In this document: positions 612 to 15,616 of the stretch, piece by piece
Layout of the letters: each line of letters starts with the position of its first letter
How positions within the stretch are numbered: the first letter of the stretch is position 1
Source: a virus
Lineage: Duplodnaviria > Heunggongvirae > Uroviricota > Caudoviricetes
Direction: 5' to 3' (one strand)
DNA length: 15,849 nt
IMG/VR virus record: IMGVR_UViG_3300027819_000007
Location: 147,787-163,635 of that record
Program-made: the position numbers and the translations under genes
Notes under the pieces: model-generated
Told to the model about the DNA's origin: nothing
The model's database searches: none
The model's input: only the letters and a program-made list of their open reading frames with translations

Positions 612-1673
612 CTACACTCCAAACCAGTTACGCAACTTCTCCATAATGGTATCCCTCTCCCAATCTTCAGCGAGTTGCTTACCTTCTTCTAAGGATAAAC
701 GTCCTTTTTTGAATCTCCCATTTATGAAAAAATCCCACGTCTTCCCACCAATAGAACGGTTCACTAAGGAGTAGTTCCACCTAGCCCCCTTTGCAAAATA
801 ACTAGCATAAGCAAACTCTGTATCACTAATTCCTTCAATTACCTCCTCCCACTCCAACACAGGTCCATTCGCTACTGCCCTTACTTCTTCATGATGAGGG
901 TACATCTCCTCTCCCCTAGCAACATCAATATCCTCCACAGCATCAGCAATAATCTCCCACGGAGTATCGTTGTCTTCCGTGTTCCGAATCAAAGCCGCAA
1001 CTCGTTGTTCGTAAGTCATGTACTGAGCATCATTGGGTTCAAACAATGCCTTCTTACGATACTTTCTTCGATCTATTTTCCTCAATGCTTCAAGGATGGC
1101 AGCAGTGTAATGAGGAGCCCAATTAGATTCTCTGACTCCTCTATGTATTTCTTCCGAAATAAATCGTTGTGTTGGCTGGCTATCTATTCTCACAGCAGCC
1201 AAAATAGAAGCAAGAGCACCTGTATAAGTGTGCTCCTCATGCACTCCATAATCCTCTGGGTCTACCCTTTCCTTTATCCAATCTTCCAAAGCATCGACCG
1301 CTGCTGGATTGTTATTCACGATAGCATCATAAACCATCGACTGAATAGTAGTCTTACCCTGCTTGGAAAGAGCTTTGGCACGATACTTCAGACGGAGGGA
1401 TTTAGTATCTTTTGAGAATAGATGCCTGAGCATTTCTCCTTCCCATTGGTCTTTGAATACCTTCTCAAGAGCAAAACAAGTTTCTTTCAACTCTTCCCAC
1501 TGATTGTCCTCTTCATGAAATAATGGGACATCTTTCCCCGTAGCGATCTTGTAGAAGTTGGAAGCCCATACCGTTCCTGGGTAGTTCTCTTCAATGTAAT
1601 CCAACACAATATCCACTATTGAATCATCGGTGGAAAGGTCTTCCAGCATCGCCAGGAATGTCGTATCTGCCAT
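612..1673 (-). CDS. Multi-module protein (353 aa) with TIGR02996-like modules and an internal KSLRLKY motif
   Basis: N-terminal FLAMLEDLSTDDSIVDIVLDYIEENYP, then KSLRLKY at aa 91-97, then AIVNNNPAAVDALEDWIKER and later IRNTEDNDTPWEIIADAVED. Starts 3 nt after the upstream stop. Confidence 0.85.
   Translation of the reverse strand: MADTTFLAMLEDLSTDDSIVDIVLDYIEENYPGTVWASNFYKIATGKDVPLFHEEDNQWEELKETCFALEKVFKDQWEGEMLRHLFSKDTKSLRLKYRAKALSKQGKTTIQSMVYDAIVNNNPAAVDALEDWIKERVDPEDYGVHEEHTYTGALASILAAVRIDSQPTQRFISEEIHRGVRESNWAPHYTAAILEALRKIDRRKYRKKALFEPNDAQYMTYEQRVAALIRNTEDNDTPWEIIADAVEDIDVARGEEMYPHHEEVRAVANGPVLEWEEVIEGISDTEFAYASYFAKGARWNYSLVNRSIGGKTWDFFINGRFKKGRLSLEEGKQLAEDWERDTIMEKLRNWFGV
1383..1403 (-). 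repeat. KSLRLKY motif copy 1 (internal)
   Basis: Coding-strand AAATCCCTCCGTCTGAAGTAT; context KDTKSLRLKYRAKAL. Confidence 0.9.
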
Positions 1674-1676
1674 TAC

Positions 1677-1865
1677 TCACTCATCCAGGTAAGGCCAGCC
1701 TTCTTCGATACTACGCCAAGCTTCCCGTTTAAGTCTTTCCTTCTCTACTTCATCGTCTGTGAGTTGACAAGTATCCTGTTGACATACTTTACACAAGCCA
1801 CTTCTGCTACGAGTCAATTCCCCACATCCCTCACAGGGATATGTAGGACGATATTTCCTGGACAT
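1677..1865 (-). CDS. Small Zn-finger-like protein (62 aa)
   Basis: CEGC...CKVC. The ATG at 1865 has AGGTG upstream and is preferred over the ORF-track start at 1874. Confidence 0.75.
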   Translation of the reverse strand: MSRKYRPTYPCEGCGELTRSRSGLCKVCQQDTCQLTDDEVEKERLKREAWRSIEEGWPYLDE

Positions 1866-1880
1866 AACCCACACCTAGCA

Positions 1881-2510
1881 TTAGTTAGGAGGTGGTGGTG
1901 GCATGGGTGCAGGAACAGGAGGAGGAACCACCTCTGGGTCATTGACCTTTCCATCCATTCGTGCTTGCCACTTCTTGTCGTTGTCCCGCATGTGCTTCAA
2001 GGTTCCCTCAATCCACCAACGAGGAACTCCAAGAATGATCCAATCCCTTACCATCCATCTAGTTGCTACACGATAGTTGTCCCACGGTTCATTACAACAT
2101 CCATAAGCCAGGTCGAAGTATTTCGAGTAAGTTCGATTCAAAAACCCCTGATAAGAATCTTCCCTAGATGGAGCATAACTAATATTCCCCTCTGTAGCAT
2201 CAACCATCCACAAACTATCAATCCAGGGATACTTCCCATCCTTATCCACGTAAGTATGCAGTTCTTTACCAACGGCTTCATCCCACAGTCTCTCACACCT
2301 TCTCTTCGTTTCCAGGTCGTTACTTTGCATCCCAAGGTAAAGAGCTTCCCTGGCTCCCATGCCATAGAGGAACAAGGTATCGTGAGCCTTTTGCCTTACG
2401 GGATAGTCATCGTGGCTTAGTTGTTTAACAAGGGCAAGTTGGTTCGGAGTAGGGGGAGCAAAGGATAGAGAGGTGAAAAGACAAAGGAAGGTAGTTAGTT
2501 CATTCATCAT
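1881..2510 (-). CDS. Secreted protein with a HEAT-like repeat and Pro-rich C-terminal tail
   Basis: GGAGG RBS and hydrophobic N-terminus (TTFLCLFTSLSFA). LVKQLSHDDYPVRQKAHDTL...AREAL...SNDLETKRRCERL resembles the HEAT-like pairs common in planctomycete proteins. Tail is PPPVPAPMPPPPPN. Confidence 0.75.
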   Translation of the reverse strand: MMNELTTFLCLFTSLSFAPPTPNQLALVKQLSHDDYPVRQKAHDTLFLYGMGAREALYLGMQSNDLETKRRCERLWDEAVGKELHTYVDKDGKYPWIDSLWMVDATEGNISYAPSREDSYQGFLNRTYSKYFDLAYGCCNEPWDNYRVATRWMVRDWIILGVPRWWIEGTLKHMRDNDKKWQARMDGKVNDPEVVPPPVPAPMPPPPPN

Positions 2511-2538
2511 CGGTTCCTCCGGAAGGTTCTAACATGTC

Positions 2539-3462
2539 CTATTGGATCACCCGCACTCGATAAGGATCATTTTGCGAACCAAACACTAACTCAATTCTAG
2601 CTCCTCCTACTCCTTGTGGTGCAAATCCTATGTCCGCAGCCCAGCTAGCTATACGTCCATGCTCCTCATAACTCTCCTGAGTCTGACCGTCATACGTGCG
2701 AAAATAAGCACCTGACATTATTTGACGAACGTCCTTCACTACTGGATCATAACCTTGCAATGGACAAGCATACGTTTGAATGGCACTGGCTAGGCGATTG
2801 TGCTTATGACCCATCCAAATTACATCTGCTTGTACCCAGCCCTTACGAGCAAAGTCAATCATCCCTTTAGTGATAGGAGCTGAACCACCACTGCCATGAT
2901 GATAGTAAATCACAAACCGTTTTCCGTTACCATGACCCACACCCTCCTTGTCATTCATTCTAAACCTATAATCGACGAATCCTGTGTATCCACCGAAGTG
3001 AATTGTGTGGTTCTTATCCTTCCGTAACTTCCGTAGTTCGTGTACCAAGATTTTGAGGACGTCAATATTGTGGTACTTCTCAATACTGGTCTCATGGTTG
3101 CCACAACCTACCATATCAATCAAGTCAGCATAGGGACCGAGGATCTCTACTCCCCATTCAATTGCTGCATTGATAATGTCTACTTTACCGACCAGACGAG
3201 GGTGGAGAACATCGGCTCGAAACCGTTTACGATCCGCAATGAGGATCATATCAAAGATGTCACCATTGAGGAGAATTCTATCGTTACTCTTCTTGGCATT
3301 TTCCAGCTCTTCCATGATTATGGAATAGTCTACGTTACGAGCACCGATATGAAGGTCCGAAAGAAGTGAGAAGCCTTGGATGAATCCGTTGTGGTAAATC
3401 ACAGGAGCAGGCCGACAGATAAAAAGACCGCCTTTGGGAACAGCCGTGCTCTTCGTGGTCAT
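2539..3462 (-). CDS. Calcineurin-like metallophosphoesterase (307 aa)
   Basis: All five motifs are present: SDLHIG, GDIFD, GNHE, HHG, GHKH. The ATG at 3462 overlaps the upstream TAA (TAATG), so the ORF-track start at 3561 is too long. Confidence 0.9.
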   Translation of the reverse strand: MTTKSTAVPKGGLFICRPAPVIYHNGFIQGFSLLSDLHIGARNVDYSIIMEELENAKKSNDRILLNGDIFDMILIADRKRFRADVLHPRLVGKVDIINAAIEWGVEILGPYADLIDMVGCGNHETSIEKYHNIDVLKILVHELRKLRKDKNHTIHFGGYTGFVDYRFRMNDKEGVGHGNGKRFVIYYHHGSGGSAPITKGMIDFARKGWVQADVIWMGHKHNRLASAIQTYACPLQGYDPVVKDVRQIMSGAYFRTYDGQTQESYEEHGRIASWAADIGFAPQGVGGARIELVFGSQNDPYRVRVIQ

Positions 3463-3731
3463 TAAGACCTCACTTTTCCTTGGTAAAATGGATTCCCTTC
3501 CTGGTTGGATTTTTCTTTGAATGCTTGTTTTGCTGCCCACGCAAGGGCATCGATATGACATCGTTCACACATCTTGGGACCAATGATCACGATGGGAAAA
3601 TCATCGTCTTGGTTACAAATAGGACAAGGTTCACGAAAGAAAGTAGGCATCATTCGCATGGGTAGTTCTCCTAGTTCTTGTTGAAACTGGTTAAGGATTT
3701 CTTCAACTGTAGTATTAGGACCAAGTATCAT
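3462..3731 (-). CDS. Small Zn-finger-like protein (89 aa)
   Basis: CPIC...CERC; tightly coupled to both neighbours. Confidence 0.75.
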   Translation of the reverse strand: MILGPNTTVEEILNQFQQELGELPMRMMPTFFREPCPICNQDDDFPIVIIGPKMCERCHIDALAWAAKQAFKEKSNQEGNPFYQGKVRS

Positions 3732-3732
3732 A

Positions 3733-4140
3733 TTACATTTCTCCCCTCAACCGCTGCATAAACTGCTCAACCAACAATATTACTTTCTCTATACGCTTCA
3801 CAGATTGTCTCAACTCTTCTGCATTTCTCCAATTCTGATCCCCTACTCCATCAGATCGGTTTTCAAAAGAAACAACAGAACGCTCCACATCATGCACCGC
3901 ACCCCTCAGACCTGTGAGCCACAAATTTGCTGACTGTTCAATTGTGATATTCCTACCATAAGATGTCCATTTCAATAATGCCCTAACCACTTCATCAAGT
4001 GGATCACCCTGCTCCTCCAACCAATCTCCCAGGATCATCAAGGTATCATAATCGGTAGGGTTCTCCCGTAGCTGAGCGAAGAGGTCGTCGCCATTACTCT
4101 TCTTTCGATACTTGAGACGGAGGGATTTGATGTCTTTCAT
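3733..4140 (-). CDS. KSLRLKY-tagged protein with a TIGR02996-like module (135 aa)
   Basis: MKDIKSLRLKYRKKS followed by LFAQLRENPTDYDTLMILGDWLEEQGDP, a close match to the remembered TIGR02996 pattern (xAIxxxPdDxxxRLxyADWLeExG). ATGA overlap with the upstream gene. Confidence 0.85.
   Translation of the reverse strand: MKDIKSLRLKYRKKSNGDDLFAQLRENPTDYDTLMILGDWLEEQGDPLDEVVRALLKWTSYGRNITIEQSANLWLTGLRGAVHDVERSVVSFENRSDGVGDQNWRNAEELRQSVKRIEKVILLVEQFMQRLRGEM
4108..4128 (-). repeat. KSLRLKY motif copy 2 (N-terminal)
   Basis: Coding-strand AAATCCCTCCGTCTCAAGTAT; context MKDIKSLRLKYRKKS. Confidence 0.9.
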
Positions 4141-4559
4141 TCTTCACCTGCTAGTGCTTCTTGTAATCCAGCGTCGTCAACCGGAACTCCCATACTGTTT
4201 CCCGCTTCGATAATCCTATCTAGAAGTTCTCTTAAAGCAGTAGCTATCTCAGAAGGAACGGACCAATTGATAGGGAAATATGACATTACTTGTACCTCAT
4301 CAATCCGTATCGATACTTTAATCCTCGGATGTTCCTGCCACTGATGCTCAATCCACTCTCCCCTATCCCAATCCCCTGTTGTCAAAGTTACCGGAGACTC
4401 GTGTCGAAAAGAGTAATCAAACCCTCCATAATTCTGCTCCTCCATTTTATCATGAAGCTCTTCCCACCTACCGGCATCGGCCATGCGGATAAAATCCCCA
4501 CGAACGAAGGTGTTGGACTTCTTACTGTATTTCATCCTCAGAGATTTGATCTTATTCAT
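4137..4559 (-). CDS. KSLRMKY-tagged protein (140 aa)
   Basis: The ATG at 4559 overlaps the upstream TGA (ATGA), with GGAG 9 nt upstream, giving MNKIKSLRMKYSKKS. A degenerate module follows (WEELHDKMEEQ). Confidence 0.8.
   Translation of the reverse strand: MNKIKSLRMKYSKKSNTFVRGDFIRMADAGRWEELHDKMEEQNYGGFDYSFRHESPVTLTTGDWDRGEWIEHQWQEHPRIKVSIRIDEVQVMSYFPINWSVPSEIATALRELLDRIIEAGNSMGVPVDDAGLQEALAGEE
4527..4547 (-). repeat. KSLRMKY motif copy 3 (N-terminal)
   Basis: Coding-strand AAATCTCTGAGGATGAAATAC. Confidence 0.85.
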
Positions 4560-4876
4560 CCTCCCACTCTCCAATCTCGATTCTCAATGGGTGGGGTCAG
4601 CAGCCCCTTCTCGAAACAAGATAAGTTGTAGACGGTAAAGTTAAAGCAGCCCCACGGGATCATGTCGATATTGTCATACACATCCAACTTGATTTCCTTG
4701 AGGAGAAGGGAGAGTTCATTACCATCTACACTGGTCGTACAAACATACCAGCCCCCAAACATATCGCATAGGCAAGACTTCAACCAACTCCTGGAAGCAA
4801 GAAGATTGACGATGTGATGGAACTCTTGTCTTCCATCACCCGCCAGGGTCCAACTTCTTGTTTCGAGAAAACTCAC
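4556..4876 (-). CDS. Hypothetical protein (106 aa)
   Basis: GTG start overlaps the upstream TGA (GTGA) and its stop overlaps the downstream ATG; no family recognised. Confidence 0.7.
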   Translation of the reverse strand: MSFLETRSWTLAGDGRQEFHHIVNLLASRSWLKSCLCDMFGGWYVCTTSVDGNELSLLLKEIKLDVYDNIDMIPWGCFNFTVYNLSCFEKGLLTPPIENRDWRVGG

Positions 4877-5001
4877 ATTCTACTCCCTAAAGCCCAATCT
4901 TCCACTTCCACATCTTCTCCAAAGGGAGGCTTATCTTCCGTCAAATCTCTAATAAGAGCATAGAGCCAGTAAATGCCCAGACAGCAAAGGATATATCTCA
5001 T
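4873..5001 (-). CDS. Small membrane protein (42 aa), not in ORF track
   Basis: Translated by hand: MRYILCCLGIYWLYALIRDLTEDKPPFGEDVEVEDWALGSRM. It fills the gap exactly, with ATGA and GTGA overlaps. Confidence 0.7.
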   Translation of the reverse strand: MRYILCCLGIYWLYALIRDLTEDKPPFGEDVEVEDWALGSRM

Positions 5002-5195
5002 GGAGGACTTCCTTCTTCTAAAGTAAAAGTTACCTTAACAATGTGATACTTTTGACTCTCCCAATAAGTCCAGTTGTTATTACCCCACTTCATCCACTCC
5101 GCATAGTGAAAGAAATTATCTTTCACCAACTTCTCTTTAGTAGAAAATGAAGGATCAATTATTTCCGTAGAGCCATCCTCTTTATCGTGAATCAC
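4998..5195 (-). CDS. Hypothetical protein; start uncertain
   Basis: The frame is open 4998-5318. The GTG at 5195 overlaps the upstream TAG/TGA and avoids a 124-nt overlap, but its RBS is weak. Confidence 0.55.
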   Translation of the reverse strand: MIHDKEDGSTEIIDPSFSTKEKLVKDNFFHYAEWMKWGNNNWTYWESQKYHIVKVTFTLEEGSPP

Positions 5196-5446
5196 TATCC
5201 AGCCACTAAGTTGCTTTTTCGTAGATGGGTTGATTTCTTTTTCACCATCCAACTCATGAACAAAACCATTCCGTCCAACCCCGCTTCGCAGGTGGTGGTT
5301 TGTGGATCGAGCCGCCATCCTCTCGTCTCCAGGTTCTTGAGGCGAGAAAGATGCTGTTCCCTGATCTCACTCACCTTCTCTAAAACTGCCTCCAGGGTAG
5401 GACAAGAAGATGTATTTCCTTCAGTGAACAAATTGAATCGATCCAT
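5195..5446 (-). CDS. Hypothetical protein (83 aa)
   Basis: ATG at 5446 with AGGAG 8 nt upstream (MDRFNLFTEG...); ends TAG-TGA. Confidence 0.65.
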   Translation of the reverse strand: MDRFNLFTEGNTSSCPTLEAVLEKVSEIREQHLSRLKNLETRGWRLDPQTTTCEAGLDGMVLFMSWMVKKKSTHLRKSNLVAG

Positions 5447-5483
5447 GATGATTACTCCTAATAAAGTTCTTTCTCTAACCTTA

Positions 5484-5729
5484 CTAAATTTGTGGGGTAA
5501 ATTCATGTATCACTTGAATAAATTGATCACTCACGGTAATCTGCTGACCACATTCACACTCCACTAAAGAATTGTGAGAGTAGTCAGAAGGACATCACTT
5601 TGGAATATGTTGAATGATCCTCTTGATGTGGTGTCCCTCATGCTTCTTGGGGAAGCAGGCTCCATCGACAACACAATGTCGTCCTGGATTGAAATCAATC
5701 GTAGCATTAATATTTTCACACGGCTGCAT
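5484..5729 (-). pseudogene. Cys/His-rich small gene interrupted by one in-frame TGA (pseudogene, sequence error or recoded)
   Basis: GAGGTG RBS then MQPCENINATIDFNPGRHCVVDGACFPKKHEGHHIKRIIQHIPK*CPSDYSHNSLVECECGQQITVSDQFIQVIHEFTPQI, ending TAG-TAA. The TGA is codon 45 (5595-5597). It fills an otherwise empty 240-nt gap. Confidence 0.55.
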
Positions 5730-5733
5730 GGAA

Positions 5734-6078
5734 TCACCTCATTCTATGTAAAATAACATTTGCTGTAAGTTTCGCTCCAAGAAGTATTTGATATTCCTCC
5801 AACATCTTTTCTATCTCTCCTTCCCCCTCCTCAGCACCATCCCTTACTTGTTCAATAGAGATACTATTTTCATATAATCTTGTTAAAAGATCATTATCTA
5901 TTCCAACCAAATTACAAATTTTCCTTGCTAGAGATACATGAAGAAATTCATTATTTGGAATACCTATTTTGTCCCACAGTTCAGGATGATTCTCACTAAG
6001 ATAATCACAAGCAATCATAGCGACATTTCTATCCTCAGTGGAAGTATCATAGAGCATACTTCTTAGAATTGTATCCAT
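5734..6078 (-). CDS. Protein with an N-terminal TIGR02996-like module and no KSLR tag (114 aa)
   Basis: MDTILRSMLYDTSTEDRNVAMIACDYLSENHP resembles the N-termini of 612-1673 and 11714-12403. Confidence 0.75.
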   Translation of the reverse strand: MDTILRSMLYDTSTEDRNVAMIACDYLSENHPELWDKIGIPNNEFLHVSLARKICNLVGIDNDLLTRLYENSISIEQVRDGAEEGEGEIEKMLEEYQILLGAKLTANVILHRMR

Positions 6079-6081
6079 CTT

Positions 6082-6543: not shown

Positions 6544-6546
6544 GAA

Positions 6547-7623
6547 TTACTCCCGGTAAAAAGGATTTTTCTTGACTTCCACATCCAGAAGAGGATCAGG
6601 ATTGGAAGGAGACATATCAGCCATCACACACTCAGGTTTGACTGAAGAATCCTTCATGGACTTTTCCATCGCTGCCAGATGAACCTGCTCCACGATCTTC
6701 TGGAAGACTTTCTTCTCCTTATGGACTCGCTGAGCAGTCTCAAACAAGGCTTCCTCTCGACAGCAAGCACACAGCCACTTCTGAATAGTATGAAGATAAT
6801 TCCCATTCCTGAAGAATCCAAAACGATCTAATTCCAACTCCACCCCACACACTCCACAGGAAATAGATTCCTTGTCTTTCCCATCTATAGGACAGGAATC
6901 CAACTTTTTGATTTCCGTATCCTTGTCAGGGATGTTAAACTTTCCAGGCATCGGTGTGGGCTGTGAATCTCTTGCAATCATATCCTGAAGATATTCTTTG
7001 CATTGAAGATTTACGGAATCAACTCTCTGAGCAGGAAGGAGAGCGTGGATAGAGTCAAGGATAAGTTTCTTCGTCTCCAGAATTTCCTCGTTGGTGATTT
7101 TCTTATCTCCTACCTTGGGAGTTACATTTACCGTCACGATAATTTGCATAGGTAGTCTCCTATCCTTATTGAATTTTCTCAACTTGCCAATTTGATTAGC
7201 AGGATCCAACATAGACTCTCGAATCTTCTCTACCGAAACCAAATACTCTCTTAACACCTCACTAACAGGCCCATCTTTCTCTTGCATCAATCCAATAAGA
7301 AGATGACTAGAATGAACATAGCCATCATCCCAATATCCCGCTTCTCTAATAGAAGCCTCAATCACCCTTCTTACCCGTGGGGTTTGCGGGAATATATCTG
7401 GCATAATCCTACTTTGACAAGGAGGAATCATGCTCGTTATTCGATTCAGAAGATGGTTTGTATCCACTCCCATATTCCACAAAACAGTAAAGCCTGCACC
7501 CTCCTCCCTAATAAGACCTATAAGGAGATGTTCAACATCAATCCACCCATGATTTAGTTTCTGGGATTCCAGATTGGATAACCTCATCACTTCCCTAAAA
7601 CCTGCTGTAGATTTTTGAATCAT
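6547..7623 (-). CDS. Clp N-terminal (Clp repeat) domain protein without an AAA+ module; Cys-rich C-terminal part
   Basis: aa ~9-140 carry two Clp-N repeats: LNHGWIDVEHLLIGLIRE and PQTPRVRRVIEAS...YVHSSHLLIGLMQE. No Walker A/B motif. Later CGVC...CACC. Confidence 0.85.
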   Translation of the reverse strand: MIQKSTAGFREVMRLSNLESQKLNHGWIDVEHLLIGLIREEGAGFTVLWNMGVDTNHLLNRITSMIPPCQSRIMPDIFPQTPRVRRVIEASIREAGYWDDGYVHSSHLLIGLMQEKDGPVSEVLREYLVSVEKIRESMLDPANQIGKLRKFNKDRRLPMQIIVTVNVTPKVGDKKITNEEILETKKLILDSIHALLPAQRVDSVNLQCKEYLQDMIARDSQPTPMPGKFNIPDKDTEIKKLDSCPIDGKDKESISCGVCGVELELDRFGFFRNGNYLHTIQKWLCACCREEALFETAQRVHKEKKVFQKIVEQVHLAAMEKSMKDSSVKPECVMADMSPSNPDPLLDVEVKKNPFYRE

Positions 7624-7636: not shown

Positions 7637-8677
7637 TTAGTGAACACGAATAGTAAGAGAAGAAACATCTCCCAGCACCCCTCGCAACTTTCTCAGCCCC
7701 GCTTCACTGAAGTCAGAAGGAATAAAATCCACACTTCCTGGAGGAGGCTGATAGGCCAACAGCTTCTCAGGGGAGATAAGTCCAAACCCATAACTACTAT
7801 CCCATCCAGTAGGACCAAGATCCAACGAAGTTTTGTGAAGGTGCTCAATCACTTGCTGGGGAGTACCTACAGGGGAAGCACCCCCGATAGAACGATGCTT
7901 GGCCAGCATCAAGGCAATCACACCCGCAGCGTAAGGACAGGCAAAGGAAGTTCCACTCATTACCGCTTGGTTGTTGGGAGGAATGTCAACCAGGATGTTT
8001 ACTCCCGGAGCCACAATGTCAACTCGTTTACCACGGGAAGAGAACCTTGCAATTGCCTTGGTCTGGTCAATGGCCCCTACACTAACCACCCCCTCTACCT
8101 GTGCGGGATACCCTACCGTGGAGAGATCTGGACCCTCATTCCCTGCGGCACATACACAGATAATGCCAGCAGCCAGGGCTTCCTCTACGGCTTGATTAAT
8201 AGACGCATCAGGGGAAGGAGAACCAAACGACATGGAGATAATGTCAGCCTTCTTCTCCACCAACCAACGAATCCCCGAAGTGATACTACGAGAGCCTCCT
8301 GCTCCCTGTGAGTTCAACACCTTTCCAACAAGAAGACCTCCCTCATTAGCTACCCCCACGATCCCTACCTCGTTATCCCTCGCCGCGATGATAGAGCCAC
8401 AAGCTGTACCATGCCCATTATCGTCCGCAGGTCCGGTAGGGGAACCTGTAAAATCCTTGGCATCAAGAATAGCCCCCTGCAAGTCTCCATGAACCAGGGA
8501 AATACCTGTATCGAGAACTCCAATCTTAATTCCTTTTCCTCTTGTTTCTTTCCACAAAGGAGGGATGTTAAGTAATTTGATTCCCCAATCAATCGACTGT
8601 GACCGTGCTGTAAACACCTGTTCTACAGTAAAGGGGGGAAGTCTAAACACAGGTTCCGTCAATACTTCATCAGCCAT
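7637..8677 (-). CDS. Subtilisin-family (S8) serine protease, intracellular type (346 aa)
   Basis: Catalytic D56 (VLDTG), H89 (DDNGHGT), oxyanion N180 (AAGN) and S244 (SGTSFACP). There is no signal peptide or long prodomain; the short N-extension contains FRLPPF, like the LIPY/F motif of intracellular subtilisins. Confidence 0.95.
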   Translation of the reverse strand: MADEVLTEPVFRLPPFTVEQVFTARSQSIDWGIKLLNIPPLWKETRGKGIKIGVLDTGISLVHGDLQGAILDAKDFTGSPTGPADDNGHGTACGSIIAARDNEVGIVGVANEGGLLVGKVLNSQGAGGSRSITSGIRWLVEKKADIISMSFGSPSPDASINQAVEEALAAGIICVCAAGNEGPDLSTVGYPAQVEGVVSVGAIDQTKAIARFSSRGKRVDIVAPGVNILVDIPPNNQAVMSGTSFACPYAAGVIALMLAKHRSIGGASPVGTPQQVIEHLHKTSLDLGPTGWDSSYGFGLISPEKLLAYQPPPGSVDFIPSDFSEAGLRKLRGVLGDVSSLTIRVH

Positions 8678-9067: not shown

Positions 9068-9275
9068 TCAAAATGCCTCCAAAGGAAGGGGATTCATCAG
9101 CAGGAAGCAGTACCGAAGAGACATGAGTATTGGTAGTTTCACGCAACCTTTCTTCCAATCGCTTCAATTCCTGAAGATAGAAGTCTTCCTGATTATCGTG
9201 GTAACAATCCATCGCTTTCTTCCATCCCTGACCCAGAATCTTCAGCCACCCAATCATAATGACCCTTCGCTTCAT
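9057..9275 (-). CDS. Hypothetical protein (72 aa)
   Basis: AGGAG RBS; short coiled-coil-like stretch LQELKRLEERLRE. Confidence 0.65.
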   Translation of the reverse strand: MKRRVIMIGWLKILGQGWKKAMDCYHDNQEDFYLQELKRLEERLRETTNTHVSSVLLPADESPSFGGILNGR

Positions 9276-9308
9276 CTTTCACTCCTCTCAGGAAAGAAGG
9301 AAAAGAAA

Positions 9309-9572
9309 TCACAACCCTCTACGCAATGCTTGAATCTGAGCGTCGGTTTCCATCGACTTCATCTTGAGTTCAGTCCTGCTGCCGATGTACTTCCATACTG
9401 CAAGTCCAGCAGAGAAGAGGCTAGTAACCGCTACCACTGCCCCCAGGATCGCTTGCACCAGATTATCAGCCTCAGCCTTGGGAACCCCGAAAAGAGTCAC
9501 CAGAACCGAAGCTATCAGGGTTAGAATGGTCGCTAAAAATTCTGTCGATTGCCATCCAGGTCGAATTTCCAT
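9309..9572 (-). CDS. Small two-TM membrane protein, holin-like (87 aa)
   Basis: The ATG at 9572 overlaps the upstream TAA, giving MEIRPGWQSTEFLATILTLIASVLVTLFG...AILGAVVAVTSLFSAGLAVWKY with a charged C-tail. The holin call rests on topology and the PGWxSTEF start only. Confidence 0.65.
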   Translation of the reverse strand: MEIRPGWQSTEFLATILTLIASVLVTLFGVPKAEADNLVQAILGAVVAVTSLFSAGLAVWKYIGSRTELKMKSMETDAQIQALRRGL

Positions 9573-9745
9573 TAGAGACACCAACTTTCGTAAAGGAGTT
9601 GTGCAAAGAAAACAAAAATATGCCCCAAAGCAATTCCGAACATGACACCAATTACAATAGCGAGAGCCGCGTAGAAGAGAAAATCCCACTGATTAGGATT
9701 TCGAGAAGGTGTAGAATCTTGAGGTGAAAGATTAAGAAAAAGCAT
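9572..9745 (-). CDS. Small single-TM membrane protein (57 aa), not in ORF track
   Basis: MLFLNLSPQDSTPSRNPNQWDFLFYAALAIVIGVMFGIALGHIFVFFAQLLYESWCL; AAGGA upstream; TAATG coupling downstream. Confidence 0.7.
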   Translation of the reverse strand: MLFLNLSPQDSTPSRNPNQWDFLFYAALAIVIGVMFGIALGHIFVFFAQLLYESWCL

Positions 9746-9757
9746 TACACCGTCCTT

Positions 9758-10609
9758 TTAACTTACATAAAGTTTCTCCAAAGCACGCTTCAATGCCTTC
9801 TTTCCATATTTATCTGCCGACATCTGAGCATAATAACGAAACATTGTCCTTATACGTCCATTGATTCTATCCATCAATTTTTCTCTTATCAAAAACCTCA
9901 CCGAAGGAGGATACCGGGATAGCCTGTCCATTACCTTATCGACAGAACTGACTATATCCTCCTTGCTAGCCATTTCAACTTTACCATCTTCGTTCAAAGA
10001 AATTAGGGGGCTTTCCAAAAAGGACGTGAAAGTATCCATAGCAAATCTAAGCTCATGATCCGCATGAGCTTCTATGGAAGAATCATCAGAATATGATCGA
10101 ATATTACCTACAAGATTGTGTAACGCATTAAATTTACCTTCGTGTCGAGCAGGAGAATTGATGATTTCTTCTACTCTATCAGCAAACCAATCTAAATCTT
10201 CGTCTTTAACTCCCAATTTCGTAAGAAATGGCAACACCTCTTCTGGAGTGTTAGTTATGATATCCGCAAGTTCGGAAGTCATCCCAAGAGGAGAGGTGTC
10301 CTGCTTGGGTTCTACTAAACTTCTAACATAAGACGTAACTTTCTCCCACGATTCACCATCCAGTATCCTTGCAATGATCTCATTGGCCTCTGTAGGATCA
10401 ATTTTATGACCAGACTTCTCTACAAAATATCTTTCTAATTGCTGTAGTCCACCCTCTTCTCTTGCAACGGATGTCACCATCTCATAAGCAGTATTTTCAT
10501 CAATCCCCAAAGTCGCAAGAGAGAAAGCCTTCTTCTCATATTTATAACGAAGAGATTTCACCTTCCGGAAGTTCTTGAAGTGAACTAAATTTCTTATTAA
10601 CTCTGGCAT
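9758..10609 (-). CDS. KSLRYKY-tagged helical protein (283 aa; alternative GTG start at 10624)
   Basis: MPELIRNLVHFKNFRKVKSLRYKYEKKAF..., with degenerate modules LERYFVEKSG and WFADRVEE; GGTGAG 7 nt upstream of the ATG. Confidence 0.8.
   Translation of the reverse strand: MPELIRNLVHFKNFRKVKSLRYKYEKKAFSLATLGIDENTAYEMVTSVAREEGGLQQLERYFVEKSGHKIDPTEANEIIARILDGESWEKVTSYVRSLVEPKQDTSPLGMTSELADIITNTPEEVLPFLTKLGVKDEDLDWFADRVEEIINSPARHEGKFNALHNLVGNIRSYSDDSSIEAHADHELRFAMDTFTSFLESPLISLNEDGKVEMASKEDIVSSVDKVMDRLSRYPPSVRFLIREKLMDRINGRIRTMFRYYAQMSADKYGKKALKRALEKLYVS
10538..10558 (-). repeat. KSLRYKY motif copy 4 (near N-terminus)
   Basis: Coding-strand AAATCTCTTCGTTATAAATAT. Confidence 0.85.
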
Positions 10610-10637
10610 TTCATTTCTCACCACGAAAGGGAAGCCT

Positions 10638-10674
10638 GGTGGGGAAGGGAGTGACAGGGGTTGGGTTCCCCACC
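10638..10674. other. Intergenic inverted repeat overlapping a G-quadruplex-type motif
   Basis: Perfect 9-bp arms GGTGGGGAA (10638-10646) and TTCCCCACC (10666-10674) with a 19-nt loop. The plus strand reads GGGG-AA-GGG-AGTGACA-GGGG-TT-GGG (10641-10665). Confidence 0.6.
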
Positions 10675-10687
10675 GGGTCAGGAAAGA

Positions 10688-10909
10688 TCAGTCAATCATA
10701 CAGGAGTCACCAGAAATGAGAGAATCCACCATCCTGCGAAGAAGACGAATCTCATGACGCTCAGCCTTGGTCATCATCAGATCAGTAATCTCTACCGCCA
10801 GGGTGAGCAATTCCTTCTTCCTTCGATAAGGAATAGGAGGAACCTTCTTTTCCCTTTCGTAGTGGGGTCTTGAATCTGTACCCATCGTGCTTTCACATTC
10901 ATCGTGCAT
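10688..10909 (-). CDS. Hypothetical protein (73 aa)
   Basis: Starts 2 nt after the upstream stop; no family recognised. Confidence 0.6.
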   Translation of the reverse strand: MHDECESTMGTDSRPHYEREKKVPPIPYRRKKELLTLAVEITDLMMTKAERHEIRLLRRMVDSLISGDSCMID

Positions 10910-10911
10910 AC

Positions 10912-11292
10912 TTACTTTCCTTTCTTTCTTGCTTTCTTGGAGTGTTTGGTTCGACCACGTTCCTCAAGCCAGTCAGCATAAACTTGCCAGGTATCCTTAT
11001 TGTCCTCCTCTGTTCCCAGAGCAGTACAGAACTCCCTTTCCACATCACTCAGTCCCAGGATGAAGAGAAGTCTTTCAAACTGTTCCTTGGTAACAGCAGA
11101 TGAAAGAAGTCCACTACCATCTAAATTAATTCCTCCCAAATTAACAGGAGGAATCTGAACAGGTGCGGGGGCCGGGACAGGAGTAGGAAGATAGGGAATG
11201 ACACAATCCTCTGGTCGGTAAGTCCAATCCGGAGTCACCTTGTAGGGTTCATTCCAAGGATGGTTCCACGTATTGTCATACCATTCAGCCAC
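10912..11292 (-). CDS. W/P-rich protein with a C-terminal TIGR02996-like module (126 aa)
   Basis: EREFCTALGTEEDNKDTWQVYADWLEERGR is the closest match in the window to the TIGR02996 pattern. N-terminus is WYDNTWNHPWNEPY...PTPVPAPAPV. Confidence 0.8.
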   Translation of the reverse strand: MAEWYDNTWNHPWNEPYKVTPDWTYRPEDCVIPYLPTPVPAPAPVQIPPVNLGGINLDGSGLLSSAVTKEQFERLLFILGLSDVEREFCTALGTEEDNKDTWQVYADWLEERGRTKHSKKARKKGK

Positions 11293-11320
11293 GATGTACC
11301 CCCTTTGTAGAAAAGACTAA

Positions 11321-11593
11321 TCAACGAAACAGTCCGCGACGAATCACCGTCTTCTGCTTGATAACCACAGGACGTTCCCGTACCACTTCCTTGATTACCA
11401 CATTCTGCTGTCGGATGACAACATCATTACTGAAGAAAACTCTATTGTTGGGAACAAACGCAACAGTAGAAGAAAATCCATTATCTACCCTTACTGCATT
11501 GAAAGAAAAAACATTCACTACAAATCCACTCGCCTGGCAAGGTGCCGAAGAGAGCAAGAACACAGCCACTACTACCAGTATTAGTTTCTTCAT
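11321..11593 (-). CDS. Small secreted Val-rich protein (90 aa)
   Basis: AGGAG RBS at the ATG 11593; signal peptide MKKLILVVVAVFLLSSAPCQA; repeated VVIR/VVIK; ends RRGLFR. Confidence 0.8.
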   Translation of the reverse strand: MKKLILVVVAVFLLSSAPCQASGFVVNVFSFNAVRVDNGFSSTVAFVPNNRVFFSNDVVIRQQNVVIKEVVRERPVVIKQKTVIRRGLFR

Positions 11594-11607
11594 GACAAAA
11601 ATCTCCT

Positions 11608-11712
11608 CTAAGGAAAAAATGTATTCAAAACCCATCCCACGATAAGGGAGATAGTCATTCCAAGAAAGAAGTAGCCGACACAAGATTCCATAAAATAAGC
11701 ATCATCATTCAT
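11608..11712 (-). CDS. Micro membrane protein (34 aa), not in ORF track
   Basis: MNDDAYFMESCVGYFFLGMTISLIVGWVLNTFFP; starts 1 nt after the upstream TAA. Confidence 0.55.
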   Translation of the reverse strand: MNDDAYFMESCVGYFFLGMTISLIVGWVLNTFFP

Positions 11713-11713
11713 T

Positions 11714-12403
11714 TTAGTCATCTTCTCTTACATCCATTCTCGATCTATGCCGTCTCCGTCTTCTCCTATCAGATTCCTGACCCCTAGTCTCCTCCATCTG
11801 TGAGGATGACCAAAACCGTTGCCTCCTCCCACTATCATCAGATGGAATTCTACAACTCGCACAGGTTTGGAATCCTTCCCTCTCATCCTGTTCCGTGAGT
11901 TCACCTTCTTTACAACGCAGACAAAGAGCTTTCTCATACTGCACAAATTTCTTGGAGTATTTAAGCCTCAGAGACTTTACCTTCCACAACCATTGAGCCT
12001 TTCCCCCACCCCCACCACCCCAACGTCTATCCTCTTCCTCATCCCATTGTCTCTGTCTTTCCTTCCTCTGTCTATCTATCTCCTCTTCAGAAGGTTGTTC
12101 TGCTCTTAACCTCTCTTCTTCTGCCACCTTACGTATATTTTCAAGTTTTAACTCATCAGATGTTTTGTCGGGGGTTCTAACGGGATGCTTTTCTTTGTAA
12201 GCATTACTGACATTAATTGCTGCTTGATAAAGTTTTGAATTAGAAGTATCAAAACCAGCATCCCTTAGTAGTTGTTTGGGATCATTACCAGCAAAATCAT
12301 TATCCTCGATATACTACAATGCTTCCTCAATAGCCACTTCCCTTTCCTCAACATCAGGATTGGAACAATTTTGCAACAACGATCTTAGTATAGCGTCAAC
12401 CAT
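11714..12403 (-). pseudogene. 229-codon multi-module gene with one in-frame TAG (pseudogene, error or readthrough)
   Basis: AGGAA RBS then MVDAILRSLLQNCSNPDVEEREVAIEEAL*YIEDND..., continuing in frame into the ORF-track segment 11714-12127: E/R-rich helix, Gly6, KSLRLKY, CLRC/CASC, Arg-rich tail. The TAG is codon 30 (12314-12316). Confidence 0.7.
11957..11977 (-). repeat. KSLRLKY motif copy 5 (internal)
   Basis: Coding-strand AAGTCTCTGAGGCTTAAATAC; context WKVKSLRLKYSKKF. Confidence 0.9.
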
Positions 12404-12416
12404 TATTATTTCCTAT

Positions 12417-12632
12417 TCAAAATACAGGGTAAAGTTCCTGATCATCTTCCGCTTCTATCTTCGCAATAGTACGAGTGAGGTCTTCCAAAAGTTTCTTGGC
12501 CATATGAAGTTTGATATGTCCGGTCACTCCAGTCCCCAGCATCAGCTTGACGGAATTACCATAGGAACGCTCCGCTTTCACAAAATCATCGCAGTCGGTT
12601 CCGTCCAGAAGAATAGAAAGAGAAGTCTTCAT
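12417..12632 (-). CDS. Hypothetical protein (71 aa)
   Basis: ATG at 12632 with AAGGA upstream (MKTSLSILLD...). Confidence 0.65.
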   Translation of the reverse strand: MKTSLSILLDGTDCDDFVKAERSYGNSVKLMLGTGVTGHIKLHMAKKLLEDLTRTIAKIEAEDDQELYPVF

Positions 12633-12643
12633 AGAAAATTTCC

Positions 12644-12991
12644 TTAAATAGTCCTTAACCAACTATTAATCCACTGTACATAAGCAGCGGGAAAAGTCGA
12701 TCTTCTTCTCTCCAACTCATCTTTCATACCAGATTTCAAAAGCATTCCATTTGTTTGAACAGCGTATTCCAAATCTTTCAAAACACAGTCAAGATCAGAT
12801 TTACCATTATGATATACTACATCCTTTCTAGTTTCGTCTACTCTCTCTTTCAACCAATCCCCTAAAATCGGAATATAATCCGTGTCATTCTTATCAAGAA
12901 TGTGTTGCACCATCAACAACAATTCTTCATTGTCCTCTTCCGACAATGTTTTAACACGATACTTCAAGCGGAGGGATTTGATATCTCTCAC
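12644..12991 (-). CDS. KSLRLKY-tagged protein with a TIGR02996-like module (115 aa)
   Basis: MRDIKSLRLKYRVKT...QHILDKNDTDYIPILGDWLKER; GTGA overlap with the upstream gene. Confidence 0.85.
   Translation of the reverse strand: MRDIKSLRLKYRVKTLSEEDNEELLLMVQHILDKNDTDYIPILGDWLKERVDETRKDVVYHNGKSDLDCVLKDLEYAVQTNGMLLKSGMKDELERRRSTFPAAYVQWINSWLRTI
12959..12979 (-). repeat. KSLRLKY motif copy 6 (N-terminal)
   Basis: Coding-strand AAATCCCTCCGCTTGAAGTAT; identical to copy 7. Confidence 0.9.
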
Positions 12992-14034
12992 TTGAACATC
13001 TCCACATGCTGTTTGGAAAGAGGTGGGGACGCCGTTCCATCAGCATTACGAGGCATCCTCAACTTAACATCCTGGGTAGAAAGTCTCTCTCTCACCTTCT
13101 TCTTCTCTTCCTCTTTCATCTGTGGGAAGGAAAAAACATCGAAATTTCCTTTGGGTTTACTCCCTGCATGACAGGAAGAACACTGCAAAGCCGCCACTTG
13201 ATAGAAGTTGACACTAACATCTGGGTTTCCCTGTACTCTAACCGGCTGGTCGGGGAGTGGTTTAACCTCCACCTTACCATCCGGAGTTTGTTCGATCTGG
13301 AAGCGGAATTCTCTCGTTGTGATCTGAGCTTGATTCTCTGCTTTGGACGCTTGCAATACCTTTGCCGCAGCTTCACCCTTGGCGAGTATCTCCGCAACCC
13401 TGGCACTATTGTTTCCCTCCTGCTGGACCAAACCAGCAAAATCGGTAGTAGCCTGACCTGCTAACTGCTGTGCATTCTGAGTGTGTCGAGACGCTTGCTG
13501 AAAAAGAATATTCCTGTCGAAATTTCCATAGGCATCTATAAAAGTAGAAAGAGAATATCCTGTGATTGTTTTACCTTGATACCCTGCAGGAGAGATGGAA
13601 AGTGAATTGTAGCCATAAGGATCGGCTCCGTAGTTCTGGAATCTAAATTGGCCCGCCAACCCTAAAGCCTCCACAGCTTCAAGAAAATACTTTTGTTCAG
13701 AAGCATTAAGCCTCAACTTCCCCTCAATCTTATCTCGGTTCTGGGCAATTTTTAGAAGTTGTGATCTCCAATCAGGATCGGTGTAAGTGACCTGCTTGTT
13801 AATGGGGTAGTAAGAATAGTAATAAGCGTAATAAGCCTTTCCATAAGCATAGTAAGTATAATACTGCTGCTTACGATAGTAGGGACCATAGGTAGTCCCA
13901 CCCTCATCGTAGTAGTAATACCCATCATTTCCTGTATAATAACCATCCCCATTCACACTACTCGCTTGAGCGGGAGACAGTGACATTACCAAGGCCAAGA
14001 TCAATACCATTGTAAGAAACAGAAAACGTCCCAT
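12988..14034 (-). CDS. Secreted protein with a Tyr-rich tract and a C-terminal monoheme c-type cytochrome domain (planctomycete cytochrome C-like)
   Basis: Signal peptide ending PAQA; 21 Tyr in 45 residues (13807-13941); CSSCH at 13168-13182, followed by KGNFDV...RMP...PPL, with the Met of RMP a candidate distal ligand. Confidence 0.85.
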   Translation of the reverse strand: MGRFLFLTMVLILALVMSLSPAQASSVNGDGYYTGNDGYYYYDEGGTTYGPYYRKQQYYTYYAYGKAYYAYYYSYYPINKQVTYTDPDWRSQLLKIAQNRDKIEGKLRLNASEQKYFLEAVEALGLAGQFRFQNYGADPYGYNSLSISPAGYQGKTITGYSLSTFIDAYGNFDRNILFQQASRHTQNAQQLAGQATTDFAGLVQQEGNNSARVAEILAKGEAAAKVLQASKAENQAQITTREFRFQIEQTPDGKVEVKPLPDQPVRVQGNPDVSVNFYQVAALQCSSCHAGSKPKGNFDVFSFPQMKEEEKKKVRERLSTQDVKLRMPRNADGTASPPLSKQHVEMFK

Positions 14035-14176
14035 TGAGAAGCACCCCTATAAGTTCTGATTTTGAAATATTCTTCAAGTAAGTCTGTACTGCTTCGCTGT
14101 TCCACCATTGTCGGTACTCCAGGTTGAATTGATATTCTAGTTCAGATTCACGTCGATGAGTGATTTTATAAGTCAT
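13958..14176 (-). CDS. Hypothetical protein (72 aa)
   Basis: TAA-ATG abutment with the upstream gene; its 3' end overlaps the cytochrome gene by 77 nt. Confidence 0.55.
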   Translation of the reverse strand: MTYKITHRRESELEYQFNLEYRQWWNSEAVQTYLKNISKSELIGVLLNGTFSVSYNGIDLGLGNVTVSRSSE

Positions 14177-14404
14177 TTACAGTAATCCTGAAAAGTCTTC
14201 TTCATACCAGGAAGAAGGAGGCTTTCTCTTCTCCAACACTTCATCCGGAGGAAGTTTAATACTATCAATCTCCTGCTGAATCAAAGCCTCTTCCTTGGCT
14301 CGCTTGATATTCTCCACGATCTCCAAAGTGATATTCTTCTGAAACTCCTCCACGAACTTCTCACAGGCTTGTTTCAACTTGAGTTTGTATTCTTCCTCAG
14401 TCAC
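14177..14404 (-). CDS. Small charged coiled-coil-like protein (75 aa)
   Basis: GTG start 1 nt after the upstream TAA; E/K-rich. Confidence 0.7.
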   Translation of the reverse strand: MTEEEYKLKLKQACEKFVEEFQKNITLEIVENIKRAKEEALIQQEIDSIKLPPDEVLEKRKPPSSWYEEDFSGLL

Positions 14405-14405
14405 G

Positions 14406-14561
14406 TTAGATTCCCCACTTCCAGATATTCCACACCATCACCCCTACTGCCAGCATAAACCCCAGGACACTCAAAAGGAAGACCAAAGCAACCCCTCCCA
14501 GCGTCTCCATCGGAGGCTCCGGGTGGAAAGATTCTTCTGCGTATTTGTCAGACTGGTTCAT
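14406..14561 (-). CDS. Small single-TM membrane protein (51 aa), not in ORF track
   Basis: MNQSDKYAEESFHPEPPMETLGGVALVFLLSVLGFMLAVGVMVWNIWKWGI; ATGA overlap upstream. Confidence 0.7.
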   Translation of the reverse strand: MNQSDKYAEESFHPEPPMETLGGVALVFLLSVLGFMLAVGVMVWNIWKWGI

Positions 14562-14995
14562 ACAGACAATCCTAATTTAGAACACACAGCATCTCTTATT
14601 TTGTTGATTACAGAAGGACAAAACATATTCCGATATGATGACAGATAACTATCCTCCAAATGATCCATGACAAAATTCAAAGAGTGTCTGCTTGTATCCA
14701 TCAAATCCCTACCAACGATAAAATCTATTACACGACCAACTGACTTCTCATCAGGAAACAAACCATTGATTAACTCATACCCAAAACTGTCACCAAAACG
14801 GAGACACTTTCTTACTGCCCACTCCGCATCTTCGTGGGAGATGTCCCGACCACTCTCGGCCAACAAATCTTTTATCATCGCCACTTTTACATCAAGAGGC
14901 TCATCACTACGAGCGATTCTATCCAACATACCAGCAGCGATGCTCTTCTTCTGATACTTCAAGCGGAGGGATTTAATTCCAGATTTCGTCGCCAT
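14558..14995 (-). CDS. KSLRLKY-tagged protein (145 aa)
   Basis: GGAGGG RBS; MATKSGIKSLRLKYQKKS; degenerate module RIARSDEPLDVKVAMIKDLLAESGR. Confidence 0.8.
   Translation of the reverse strand: MATKSGIKSLRLKYQKKSIAAGMLDRIARSDEPLDVKVAMIKDLLAESGRDISHEDAEWAVRKCLRFGDSFGYELINGLFPDEKSVGRVIDFIVGRDLMDTSRHSLNFVMDHLEDSYLSSYRNMFCPSVINKIRDAVCSKLGLSV
14954..14974 (-). repeat. KSLRLKY motif copy 7 (N-terminal)
   Basis: Coding-strand AAATCCCTCCGCTTGAAGTAT; identical to copy 6. Confidence 0.9.
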
Positions 14996-15173
14996 GAGAC
15001 TTCACCCTCCACAATTCATTACCACGCTCCAGATTCCTGGATTGACGCTTCCAGAATTCTACTTCCTGCTTTAGCTTTTCATTACGACAGATCATGACAA
15101 TGAGAGCGATCTCCAATCCTACCCCAATTCCAATCAGGAGCCAGTGCAAAAAATCCATAATATTATTCCTCAC
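14973..15173 (-). CDS. Small single-TM protein with a cytoplasmic coiled coil (61-66 aa)
   Basis: FLHWLLIGIGVGLEIALIVMIC then EKLKQEVEFWKRQ. Start is GTG 15173 (GTGA overlap) or ATG 15158 (GAGGA RBS). Confidence 0.7.
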   Translation of the reverse strand: MRNNIMDFLHWLLIGIGVGLEIALIVMICRNEKLKQEVEFWKRQSRNLERGNELWRVKSHGDEIWN

Positions 15174-15616
15174 AAAGAATCTCGCAACTTTTCCAATTGG
15201 CTAACATTCCTCAGTAACTCTTCTCTCTTTTGTGTATATATATTAATCAAATTCTCTCTCGCCTTTTCAACTCCAATCATTTCAGCAAGACGACCAAACC
15301 GAATAGGAAATTGAGGTGGATCAAGATCAACATCTGTCATAGCCTGCTCAAGACCCACAATCTTATCATCTACTTGATGAATTCTTGTGGTAATGATTCG
15401 ATCAAGATTGGGTTCCCCCTTCAACCTCCGCATCCGGTCCAACAAGAAATTCATATCCTCCTTCCCCAACTCAAGTCCATTCTCCTCCAAATAATCCATC
15501 AACAACCCCGCCCGATCCCTCCTCTTGATAGTATCATCCTGACTCAAACCACGAAAGATGTTAGGGTCAAGAACCTTTCTATACTTCAATCGCAAGAATT
15601 TCAGTTTAGAATTCAT
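15170..15616 (-). CDS. KFLRLKY-tagged protein with a TIGR02996-like module (148 aa)
   Basis: MNSKLKFLRLKYRKV...RGLSQDDTIKRRDRAGLLMDYLEENG. Confidence 0.8.
   Translation of the reverse strand: MNSKLKFLRLKYRKVLDPNIFRGLSQDDTIKRRDRAGLLMDYLEENGLELGKEDMNFLLDRMRRLKGEPNLDRIITTRIHQVDDKIVGLEQAMTDVDLDPPQFPIRFGRLAEMIGVEKARENLINIYTQKREELLRNVSQLEKLRDSL
15581..15601 (-). repeat. KFLRLKY motif copy 8 (N-terminal, S to F variant)
   Basis: Coding-strand AAATTCTTGCGATTGAAGTAT. Confidence 0.8.

Follow-up and report, generated by a model that had tools for sequence, protein, structure and literature searches.

Why should many proteins of one phage, most of them small, begin with nearly the same stretch of basic residues? 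The window analysed here, by which we mean the whole stretch of 15,849 nucleotides at positions 147,787 to 163,635 of IMG/VR virus record IMGVR_UViG_3300027819_000007 (Caudoviricetes), codes for eight proteins that have an ~11-residue basic peptide in common, [I/V]-K-[S/A]-L-R-x-K-Y-x-x-K, hereafter the tag. An earlier note on this DNA, made from the sequence alone, had proposed its central heptapeptide as a candidate capsid-targeting or processing signal. We found the motif repeated in the linkers of S78-like prohead protease polyproteins of a clade of large uncultured phages, the phage's own 941-residue protein among them, which gives independent support to the link between the tag and head maturation. 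From these sequence patterns we consider it moderately probable that the tag is a head-assembly signal, acting in docking, cleavage or both, that is native to the protease polyprotein and was copied onto small acidic accessory proteins.

The phage is uncultured and is present on two groundwater-metagenome contigs of ~163.5 kb. Because these contigs break at different points, its genome was taken to be circular or circularly permuted, with a size of ~163.5 kb. The window represents the minus strand of a 37.9-kb IMG/VR virus record (G000; 23% complete), and its real genes all lie on one strand. All motif counts for the phage cover 119,985 bp joined out of the ~163.5 kb.

The eight heptapeptides and the sequence contexts quoted for them proved exact: all lie on the minus strand in frame with long open reading frames (ORFs), and the heptapeptide had no match in the other frames or on the other strand of the window. 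Just beyond the window, the same IMG/VR record contains a ninth copy, KALRMKY. Over the 120 kb of phage sequence, the pattern K-x-[LIV]-R-x-K-Y occurs 17 times against 0.09–0.13 occurrences expected by chance, and K1, L3, R4, K6 and Y7 are invariant in all 17 copies, each of which is in frame on the coding strand. The whole-genome profile scan that had been suggested was run over these 120 kb with a hidden Markov model built from the copies. It separated them cleanly, with the 17 copies scoring 18–32 bits and the next best stretch 5.6 bits; 10 of the 17 were N-terminal in called genes.

The claim that the copies use different synonymous codons turned out stronger than stated, as the 17 copies use six Arg, four Leu and five Ser codons (AGT among the latter). 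Since all of these codons occur across the copies, codon usage indicates that selection acts on the peptide. A conserved element at the nucleic-acid level, for instance in the translation-initiation region just after start codons, with the peptide as a by-product, would fit the position of most copies 4–7 codons after a start codon, and four window copies do share AAATCCCTCCG, which contains the anti-Shine-Dalgarno-like CCUCC. However, the same codon diversity (AGT included) under an invariant peptide, together with copies at C-termini and deep in the 941-residue ORF, makes this explanation extremely improbable, and a DNA or RNA element as the conserved unit is, on codon usage, effectively excluded.

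Placement of the tag follows a clear preference. Six of the window copies lie within ~25 residues of the ORF start, as had been noted, and with Shine-Dalgarno-like starts five of these six begin at residue 5–8. Among all 17 copies, the 10 that are N-terminal in called genes become ~13 when in-frame starts preceded by a Shine-Dalgarno sequence are counted: for ~13 of the 17, an in-frame start codon lies 4–10 codons upstream with a Shine-Dalgarno-like sequence, including the internal copies in the 353-residue, 276-residue and zinc-ribbon proteins. Because such starts precede ~13 of 17 copies, and because the external protein P0011 corresponds to the tagged middle module of the 353-residue protein as a stand-alone, N-terminally tagged protein, the canonical unit seems to be M-x-x-[I/V]-K-S-L-R-x-K-Y followed by the body, and gene fusion or an internal start may account for some "internal" copies. 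Only two of the 17 copies are C-terminal, with the stop codon directly after KYRRK and KYHKK, and the remaining copies lie at domain boundaries. The two C-terminal copies belong to adjacent 'DY[VL]xENY' module proteins of the same phage (108 and 124 residues; L010:14681-15007 and L010:15012-15386), encoded downstream of the window and of the portal gene and ending in …IKSLRIKYRRK and …IKSLRLKYHKK. As these proteins stop right after KYRRK or KYHKK, the tag needs nothing further downstream. The tag is strongly basic, with di- and tri-basic runs, and invariant, whereas the carrier bodies are acidic (isoelectric point 4.3–5.4) and only 17–30% identical.

The wider distribution of the tag was addressed by an exhaustive search in which a profile of the tagged N-module was compared with 1.84 billion representative proteins, yielding 39 matches. 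All 22 small matches (8 from the phage itself, 14 external) carry the tag. It lies at residues 5–8 in seven of the own-phage proteins and at residue 133 in the eighth, the 246-residue P0037; among the external ones it lies at residues 4–6 in 13 and at residue 18 in P0020. Four large external proteins (751–1776 residues) contain 2–6 internal copies each. The 13 other large proteins are untagged, and their match is confined to profile positions after the tag; of the six of these scanned against NCBIfam, three are genuine TIGR02996 proteins. At the DNA level, a first pattern for the tag had no match in IMG/VR, and a second one retrieved 20 stretches, mostly outside real ORFs; one stretch in a long unrelated ORF bearing a helix-turn-helix was taken as a chance match.

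The four large tagged proteins connect the tag to the head. Each has an N-terminal Peptidase_S78 region (HK97 gp4-type prohead protease), and in the loci read for two of them, P0014 and P0027, the gene is followed directly by one for a scaffold-like protein and one for a major capsid protein of the HK97 type (PF05065). The gene order protease, acidic scaffold-like protein, PF05065 capsid holds for our phage and for loci L014 and L015. Its own head module, found via synteny, consists of the 941-residue protein, a very acidic scaffold-like protein of 570 residues and a PF05065 capsid protein of 483 residues (E 9.7e-33). These genes lie ~50 kb past the portal gene, after a block of sugar-biosynthesis, glycosyltransferase and methyltransferase genes. 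Other searches were negative: PHROGs and Pfam gave no protease, scaffold or capsid match among the ten genes downstream of the portal, tblastn with the four polyproteins found nothing in the first 85 kb of the phage, and a single-sequence search of IMG/VR returned no protease relatives. The first ~270 residues of the 941-residue protein, its protease domain, are 53–57% identical to four polyprotein proteases, and its extension contains KSLRQKYRVN and a degenerate KSLSLKYHKK.

In the clade, the tag recurs 1–6 times in the C-terminal extension of the S78-like proteases, that of our phage included. In the relatives, K-x-[LIV]-R-x-K-Y occupies two conserved extension sites, one after WKPGVGA and the other preceding a conserved ferredoxin-like domain. 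Five loci (L021, L022, L027, L029 and L035) encode a protease fused to the scaffold core, and minimal proteases without inserted domains (L021, 598 residues; L025, 270 residues) have no tag. As these minimal versions are tagless, the presence of the tag follows that of accessory domains inserted between protease and scaffold. In an AlphaFold2 (AF2) model of one polyprotein, all three tag copies lie in linkers with a predicted local distance difference test score (pLDDT) below 50, directly ahead of folded domains. A tag-first scan of IMG/VR further led to a clade protease polyprotein in a 1956-residue open frame on an 89-kb record that is 85% complete. Both tags of this record lie at most ~2.5 kb from the protease domain, inside the span of the 1956-residue frame, and no small gene there is tagged. 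Because the relatives' tags sit in the protease polyprotein and no small gene is tagged in the 89-kb record, we read the polyprotein as the probable native home of the tag and its spread to small genes as specific to the lineage of this phage.

Conserved residues and structure comparison suggest a capsid-assembly protease. The His in LFDHGK and the Ser in GSIGY are invariant and are, we infer, the catalytic residues. P0027 matches PF04586 with 24 bits, and 11 of 17 clade members match this family (best E 8e-6). For a model of the P0034 protease domain, the top structural match was T4 gp21 (5jbl; Z 7.5, a middling value; root-mean-square deviation 3.5 Å over 129 residues), which came only from the wide VIA search, followed by herpesvirus proteases at Z 5.3. 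Foldseek with the polyprotein model found nothing in the PDB at E 0.001 or better. The model is consistent with a capsid-assembly (assemblin-like) fold holding the conserved His and Ser. A scaffold of Gemmata sp. IIL30 (L050) also encodes a protease-scaffold fusion, untagged and 35% identical.

Is the tag simply part of the domain that follows it? The carriers had been called otherwise divergent, a description that does not hold for most, since in at least six of the nine carriers of the record paralogy extends well past the tag. It does hold for three: in an all-versus-all BLASTP, the 140-residue, 283-residue and zinc-ribbon carriers have only the tag in common with the others. A D[WY]LEExG helix follows 25–30 residues after the tag in nearly all carriers, and by sequence comparison most of them are diverged paralogs with a TIGR02996-like D[WY]LEExG module behind the tag. 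TIGR02996 is a domain from Gemmata-type Planctomycetes in NCBIfam, with a cutoff of 29.05 bits. Pfam, NCBIfam and PHROGs gave sub-threshold matches only for the carriers, and an untagged neighbour (10912-11292) reached 27.1 bits against TIGR02996. The D[WY]LEExG signature is nevertheless visible in most carriers, and many other genes of the record hold the module without a tag.

If the heptapeptide had no separate function, it would be the best-conserved N-terminal segment of an expanded TIGR02996-like paralog family, retained by descent. Such an account would fit the homology of six of nine carriers in the record beyond the tag, the constant spacing between the tag and the D[WY]LEExG module behind it in nearly all, and the short helix that AF2 draws for the tag. 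We nonetheless consider it quite improbable, as the tag is also found C-terminally, on a body of the zinc-ribbon type and, in the protease, within linkers that precede unrelated folds, and as it is invariant on bodies that have diverged so far. Furthermore, genuine cellular TIGR02996 proteins match the profile only at positions after the tag, so that the tag is not a regular part of this domain, and neither the 9.3 Mb of Gemmata sp. IIL30 nor 81 genomes of the same family, a G+C-rich sample only, contained a match to a strict back-translated tag pattern. In the AF2 model of the 135-residue carrier (mean pLDDT 86.5), residues 1–10 have a pLDDT of 61 and the helical fold begins at residue 17 with ~90 or more; Foldseek found nothing significant for this model among the AFDB clusters. 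The tag is a portable element and not the first helix of the TIGR02996-like domain, given its occurrence at C-termini, on other bodies and in linkers, its low AF2 confidence and its phage specificity. The idea of a portable tag at peptide level was thus borne out, and the check whether the motif is the first helix of an ordinary domain came out against that possibility.

Returning to the head-assembly signal, we propose the following course. In the protease polyprotein, the tag sits in flexible linkers of the C-terminal extension, directly ahead of accessory domains of small size. Many small acidic accessory proteins of this phage and its closest relatives have also received it at their extreme N-terminus, the majority being built on a TIGR02996-like helical module presumably borrowed from planctomycete-type hosts, with a few copies C-terminal or at an internal boundary. 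The head-assembly machinery would read the tag, docking its carrier to the prohead interior (the protease, the acidic scaffold or the inner face of the capsid). Alternatively, or in addition, the prohead protease would cut at the tag to trim the carrier and set it free. With such a mechanism, the carriers would reside inside the head and might be ejected from it. Processing would be the more economical ancestral role within the polyprotein, because the downstream domains are already tethered to the protease there. For stand-alone carriers, a processing site would be sensible only on prohead entry; the tag would then also be a docking element, or the carriers would bind as protease substrates. 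A basic tag and an acidic scaffold would be compatible with docking on the scaffold, which is speculation on our part. Packaging, cleavage and the identity of the partner are all predictions from these patterns.

The prediction of a cleavage site fared less well than that of a tag. K|S as the scissile bond, suggested earlier by analogy with known prohead proteases, fits the relatives poorly, as K1 and S2 are less conserved across them than the core [LIV]-R-x-K-Y. An invariant LVKSL at the end of the protease domain was also considered as a K|S autocleavage site and dropped, since the AF2 model shows it as a confidently predicted helix belonging to the protease fold. Among the head proteins, the motif is present in the extension of the phage's own protease, and the capsid protein has no full tag. 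In the capsid proteins of three relatives, [TS]-K-[ST]-[ILV] is conserved near residue 24–32 and would fit a K|S cut. At its N-terminus, the 570-residue scaffold-like protein (L020:21520-23232) has ~100 additional, basic residues that two relatives lack. This region closes with the degenerate tag-like IKNLRMRRK, where it meets the conserved core. A complex prediction of the protease domain with the tagged N-module, run without controls, scored 0.01.

Several observations weigh against a head-assembly role. Beyond the lack of a full tag in the capsid protein, the phage's own protease domain scores 17.9 bits (E 0.0035) against PF04586, below the Pfam S78 gathering score of 21. Because most carriers are paralogs, part of the recurrence of the tag reflects common descent and not independent acquisition. 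Two tagged genes lie ~25–27 kb upstream of the terminase gene, among nucleotide-metabolism genes and outside the structural region. Acidic cargo beside DNA is also not what one would first expect. Finally, the tagged cluster has at its centre two minus-strand genes, for an S8 subtilase (7637-8677) and a Clp_N-domain protein (6547-7623), and their products could be the true readers of the tag.

This last point leads to a different partner for the tag. It could dock to something outside the head, be it the phage's own S8 subtilase or Clp_N protein (for regulated processing or degradation), a host factor or nucleic acid, with its presence in the protease extension reflecting module fusion. The S8 (PF00082, E 7.5e-55) and Clp_N (E 2.6e-15) genes amid the tagged cluster, the absence of the full tag from capsid proteins, and the basic character of the tag with its di- and tri-basic runs in disordered segments, as in many short linear motifs, are all consistent with such a partner. 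Yet the tag is conserved in the relatives' protease polyproteins, and no S8 or Clp_N gene occurs in the ±10 kb flanks of the loci read. Both tags of the 85%-complete relative map to the protease gene, and the tag accompanies accessory domains inserted between protease and scaffold. We therefore regard a non-head partner as unlikely; the two proteins may be alternative tag readers or cargo themselves. The subtilase is of the intracellular type, with no obvious signal peptide seen. The Clp_N protein has 358 residues, with an N-terminal Clp_N repeat and a C-terminal Cys-rich region, and directly adjoins the subtilase.

For the tag as a head-assembly signal, the closest known parallel is found in T4. 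The passages on T4 in PMC7411985 describe a capsid targeting sequence (CTS) on the internal proteins IPI–III and Alt that binds the prohead core and is then removed by gp21. The T4 CTS and our tag alike are short terminal peptides that recur on several small accessory proteins of a single phage and are linked to its prohead protease system; here, such a peptide is common to several small proteins with 10 to ~13 N-terminal and two C-terminal copies among the 17. The likeness does not extend to the sequence or to the protease type: the tag is basic and lacks a Glu-ending site, and the clade matches PF04586 (S78), whereas T4 gp21 belongs to S77. T4 cleavage sites end in L/I-x-E. Unlike the T4 CTS, our tag has C-terminal copies as well, and it is repeated within the polyprotein extension of the protease itself. 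The tag is best described as an analog of the T4 CTS and not a member of that class; its packaging and removal are predictions only.

A second parallel comes from the giant phages phiKZ and SPN3US, for which the corresponding sections of PMC7411985 report many head-internal proteins, some of them paralogous, that are cut at a common motif by the prohead protease (gp175/gp245), and a C-terminal propeptide of the protease that is proposed to target it into the prohead. In the examples quoted there, the propeptides span ~110–130 residues, and the common element is a short cleavage consensus reminiscent of T4 (PMC7411985). In our phage, by contrast, the shared element is a nearly invariant 11-residue peptide, and the carriers are small acidic TIGR02996-like proteins.

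HK97 itself belongs to the comparison, since its gp4 is of the same protease family. In HK97 gp4, a short part outside the catalytic domain directs encapsidation, and the capsid protein is cut at K|S-L. A C-terminal targeting tail of this maturation protease was reportedly described by Duda, Oh and Hendrix in 2013. HK97 gp4 is a small protein with one tail, whereas the polyprotein extension of the proteases here is long and contains several copies of the tag, which has also reached other genes. Encapsulin cargo-loading peptides are likewise short, disordered and terminal, and both they and our tag would load diverse cargo into a shell of the HK97 fold. However, encapsulins use another consensus, which is Gly/Ser/Leu-rich, and have neither protease nor scaffold, so that the likeness is a functional analogy only.

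Text searches of the literature found no paper describing the motif or TIGR02996. To our knowledge, an 11-residue basic tag common to an HK97-type protease polyprotein and dispersed small proteins has not been described. Capsid-targeting or processing peptides as such are known from T4 and from phages of the phiKZ/SPN3US type; what appears new, judging from sequence, is a basic tag of 11 residues on both the protease polyprotein and small proteins. If the tag loads or processes prohead proteins, the internal or ejected protein set of an uncultured ~163 kb phage would be defined from sequence alone, a protease-linked signal would be seen spreading to new genes, and foreign proteins could be brought into HK97-type capsids by means of a compact handle of 11 residues. 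TIGR02996, a host-type domain of unknown function, would then be linked to phage-delivered proteins, which would offer a way to study it.

A bolder version, which we put forward only tentatively, is that the tag might be a transferable cargo-loading signal for the HK97-type capsid, read by the protease/scaffold core; with it, more than a dozen TIGR02996-like proteins of host origin would be loaded into the head, to be injected into a planctomycete-type host. If true, this would be programmable, sequence-defined loading comparable to encapsulin targeting peptides, in a protease family for which none has been described. Because the TIGR02996-like modules are so greatly expanded, they point to a host of the planctomycete type. 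D[WY]LEExG modules, tagged and untagged, are found in the window (930-15555) and in the rest of the record, for example at G000 2334-3008, 5406-5834, 9251-9712, 11101-11472 and 19402-19782. The window lies inside the ~29 kb of small accessory genes between the large terminase and portal genes (G000 245-2323 to 31098-33842).

The eight window carriers, all on the minus strand, illustrate how the tag is combined with different bodies. The first copy, TKSLRLKYRAKA (1383-1403), is internal, at residue 91 of the 353-residue protein (612-1673), where an N-terminal 'DYIEENY' module meets a tagged TIGR02996-like one. This protein is a fusion: its residues 1–80 resemble an untagged 114-residue protein (5734-6078), and its residues 88–200 are homologous to the whole 115-residue tagged protein (BLASTP E 4e-11). 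Translation may also start internally, as 10 codons ahead of the copy there is an in-frame ATG with a good Shine-Dalgarno sequence, GGAAGGAG. The 115-residue carrier (12644-12991) has its tag at residues 5–11 (12959-12979), followed by a DWLKE module, and is also homologous to the 135-residue carrier. The latter (3733-4140; tag at 4108-4128, residues 5–11) continues with a TIGR02996-like helical module and a coiled-coil hairpin. It scores 18.5 bits against NCBIfam TIGR02996, under the cutoff, and its orthologs P0002 and P0003 keep the tag at residues 4–5.

The adjacent 140-residue carrier (4137-4559) starts with ATG and has the tag at residues 5–11 (4527-4547). Although its body shares nothing but the tag with the other carriers by BLASTP, its own relatives (external P0024, P0025 and P0038 and own-phage P0029) have the tag at residue 5. 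In the 283-residue carrier (9758-10609), the tag (10538-10558) follows a conserved 17-residue leader and lies at residue 18, or at residue 23 in the longer, 288-residue ORF, with no Shine-Dalgarno-like start nearby; its ortholog P0020 likewise has the tag at residue 18. The zinc-ribbon-like carrier, a 137-residue ORF (11714-12127), is without a TIGR02996-like module. Its tag (11957-11977) begins at residue 50, or at residue 5 if translation starts at the TTG at 11989, four codons upstream of the tag and preceded by GGGGGAAAGG.

Two further carriers lie near the end of the window. The 145-residue protein (14558-14995; tag at 14954-14974, residues 8–14) is a full-length paralog of the ninth carrier, a 137-residue protein outside the window (E 1.5e-13 over 143 residues). 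The 148-residue protein (15170-15616) contains the variant KFLRLKY at residues 6–12 (15581-15601), followed by a DYLEENG module, and has an external relative in P0026. Between these carriers and the 115-residue one, a protein of 348 residues (12988-14034, minus strand), with no Pfam match at E 0.01, combines an N-terminal signal-peptide-like segment with a Tyr/Gly-rich region and a C-terminal CSSCH, a CxxCH motif of the heme-c-like kind.

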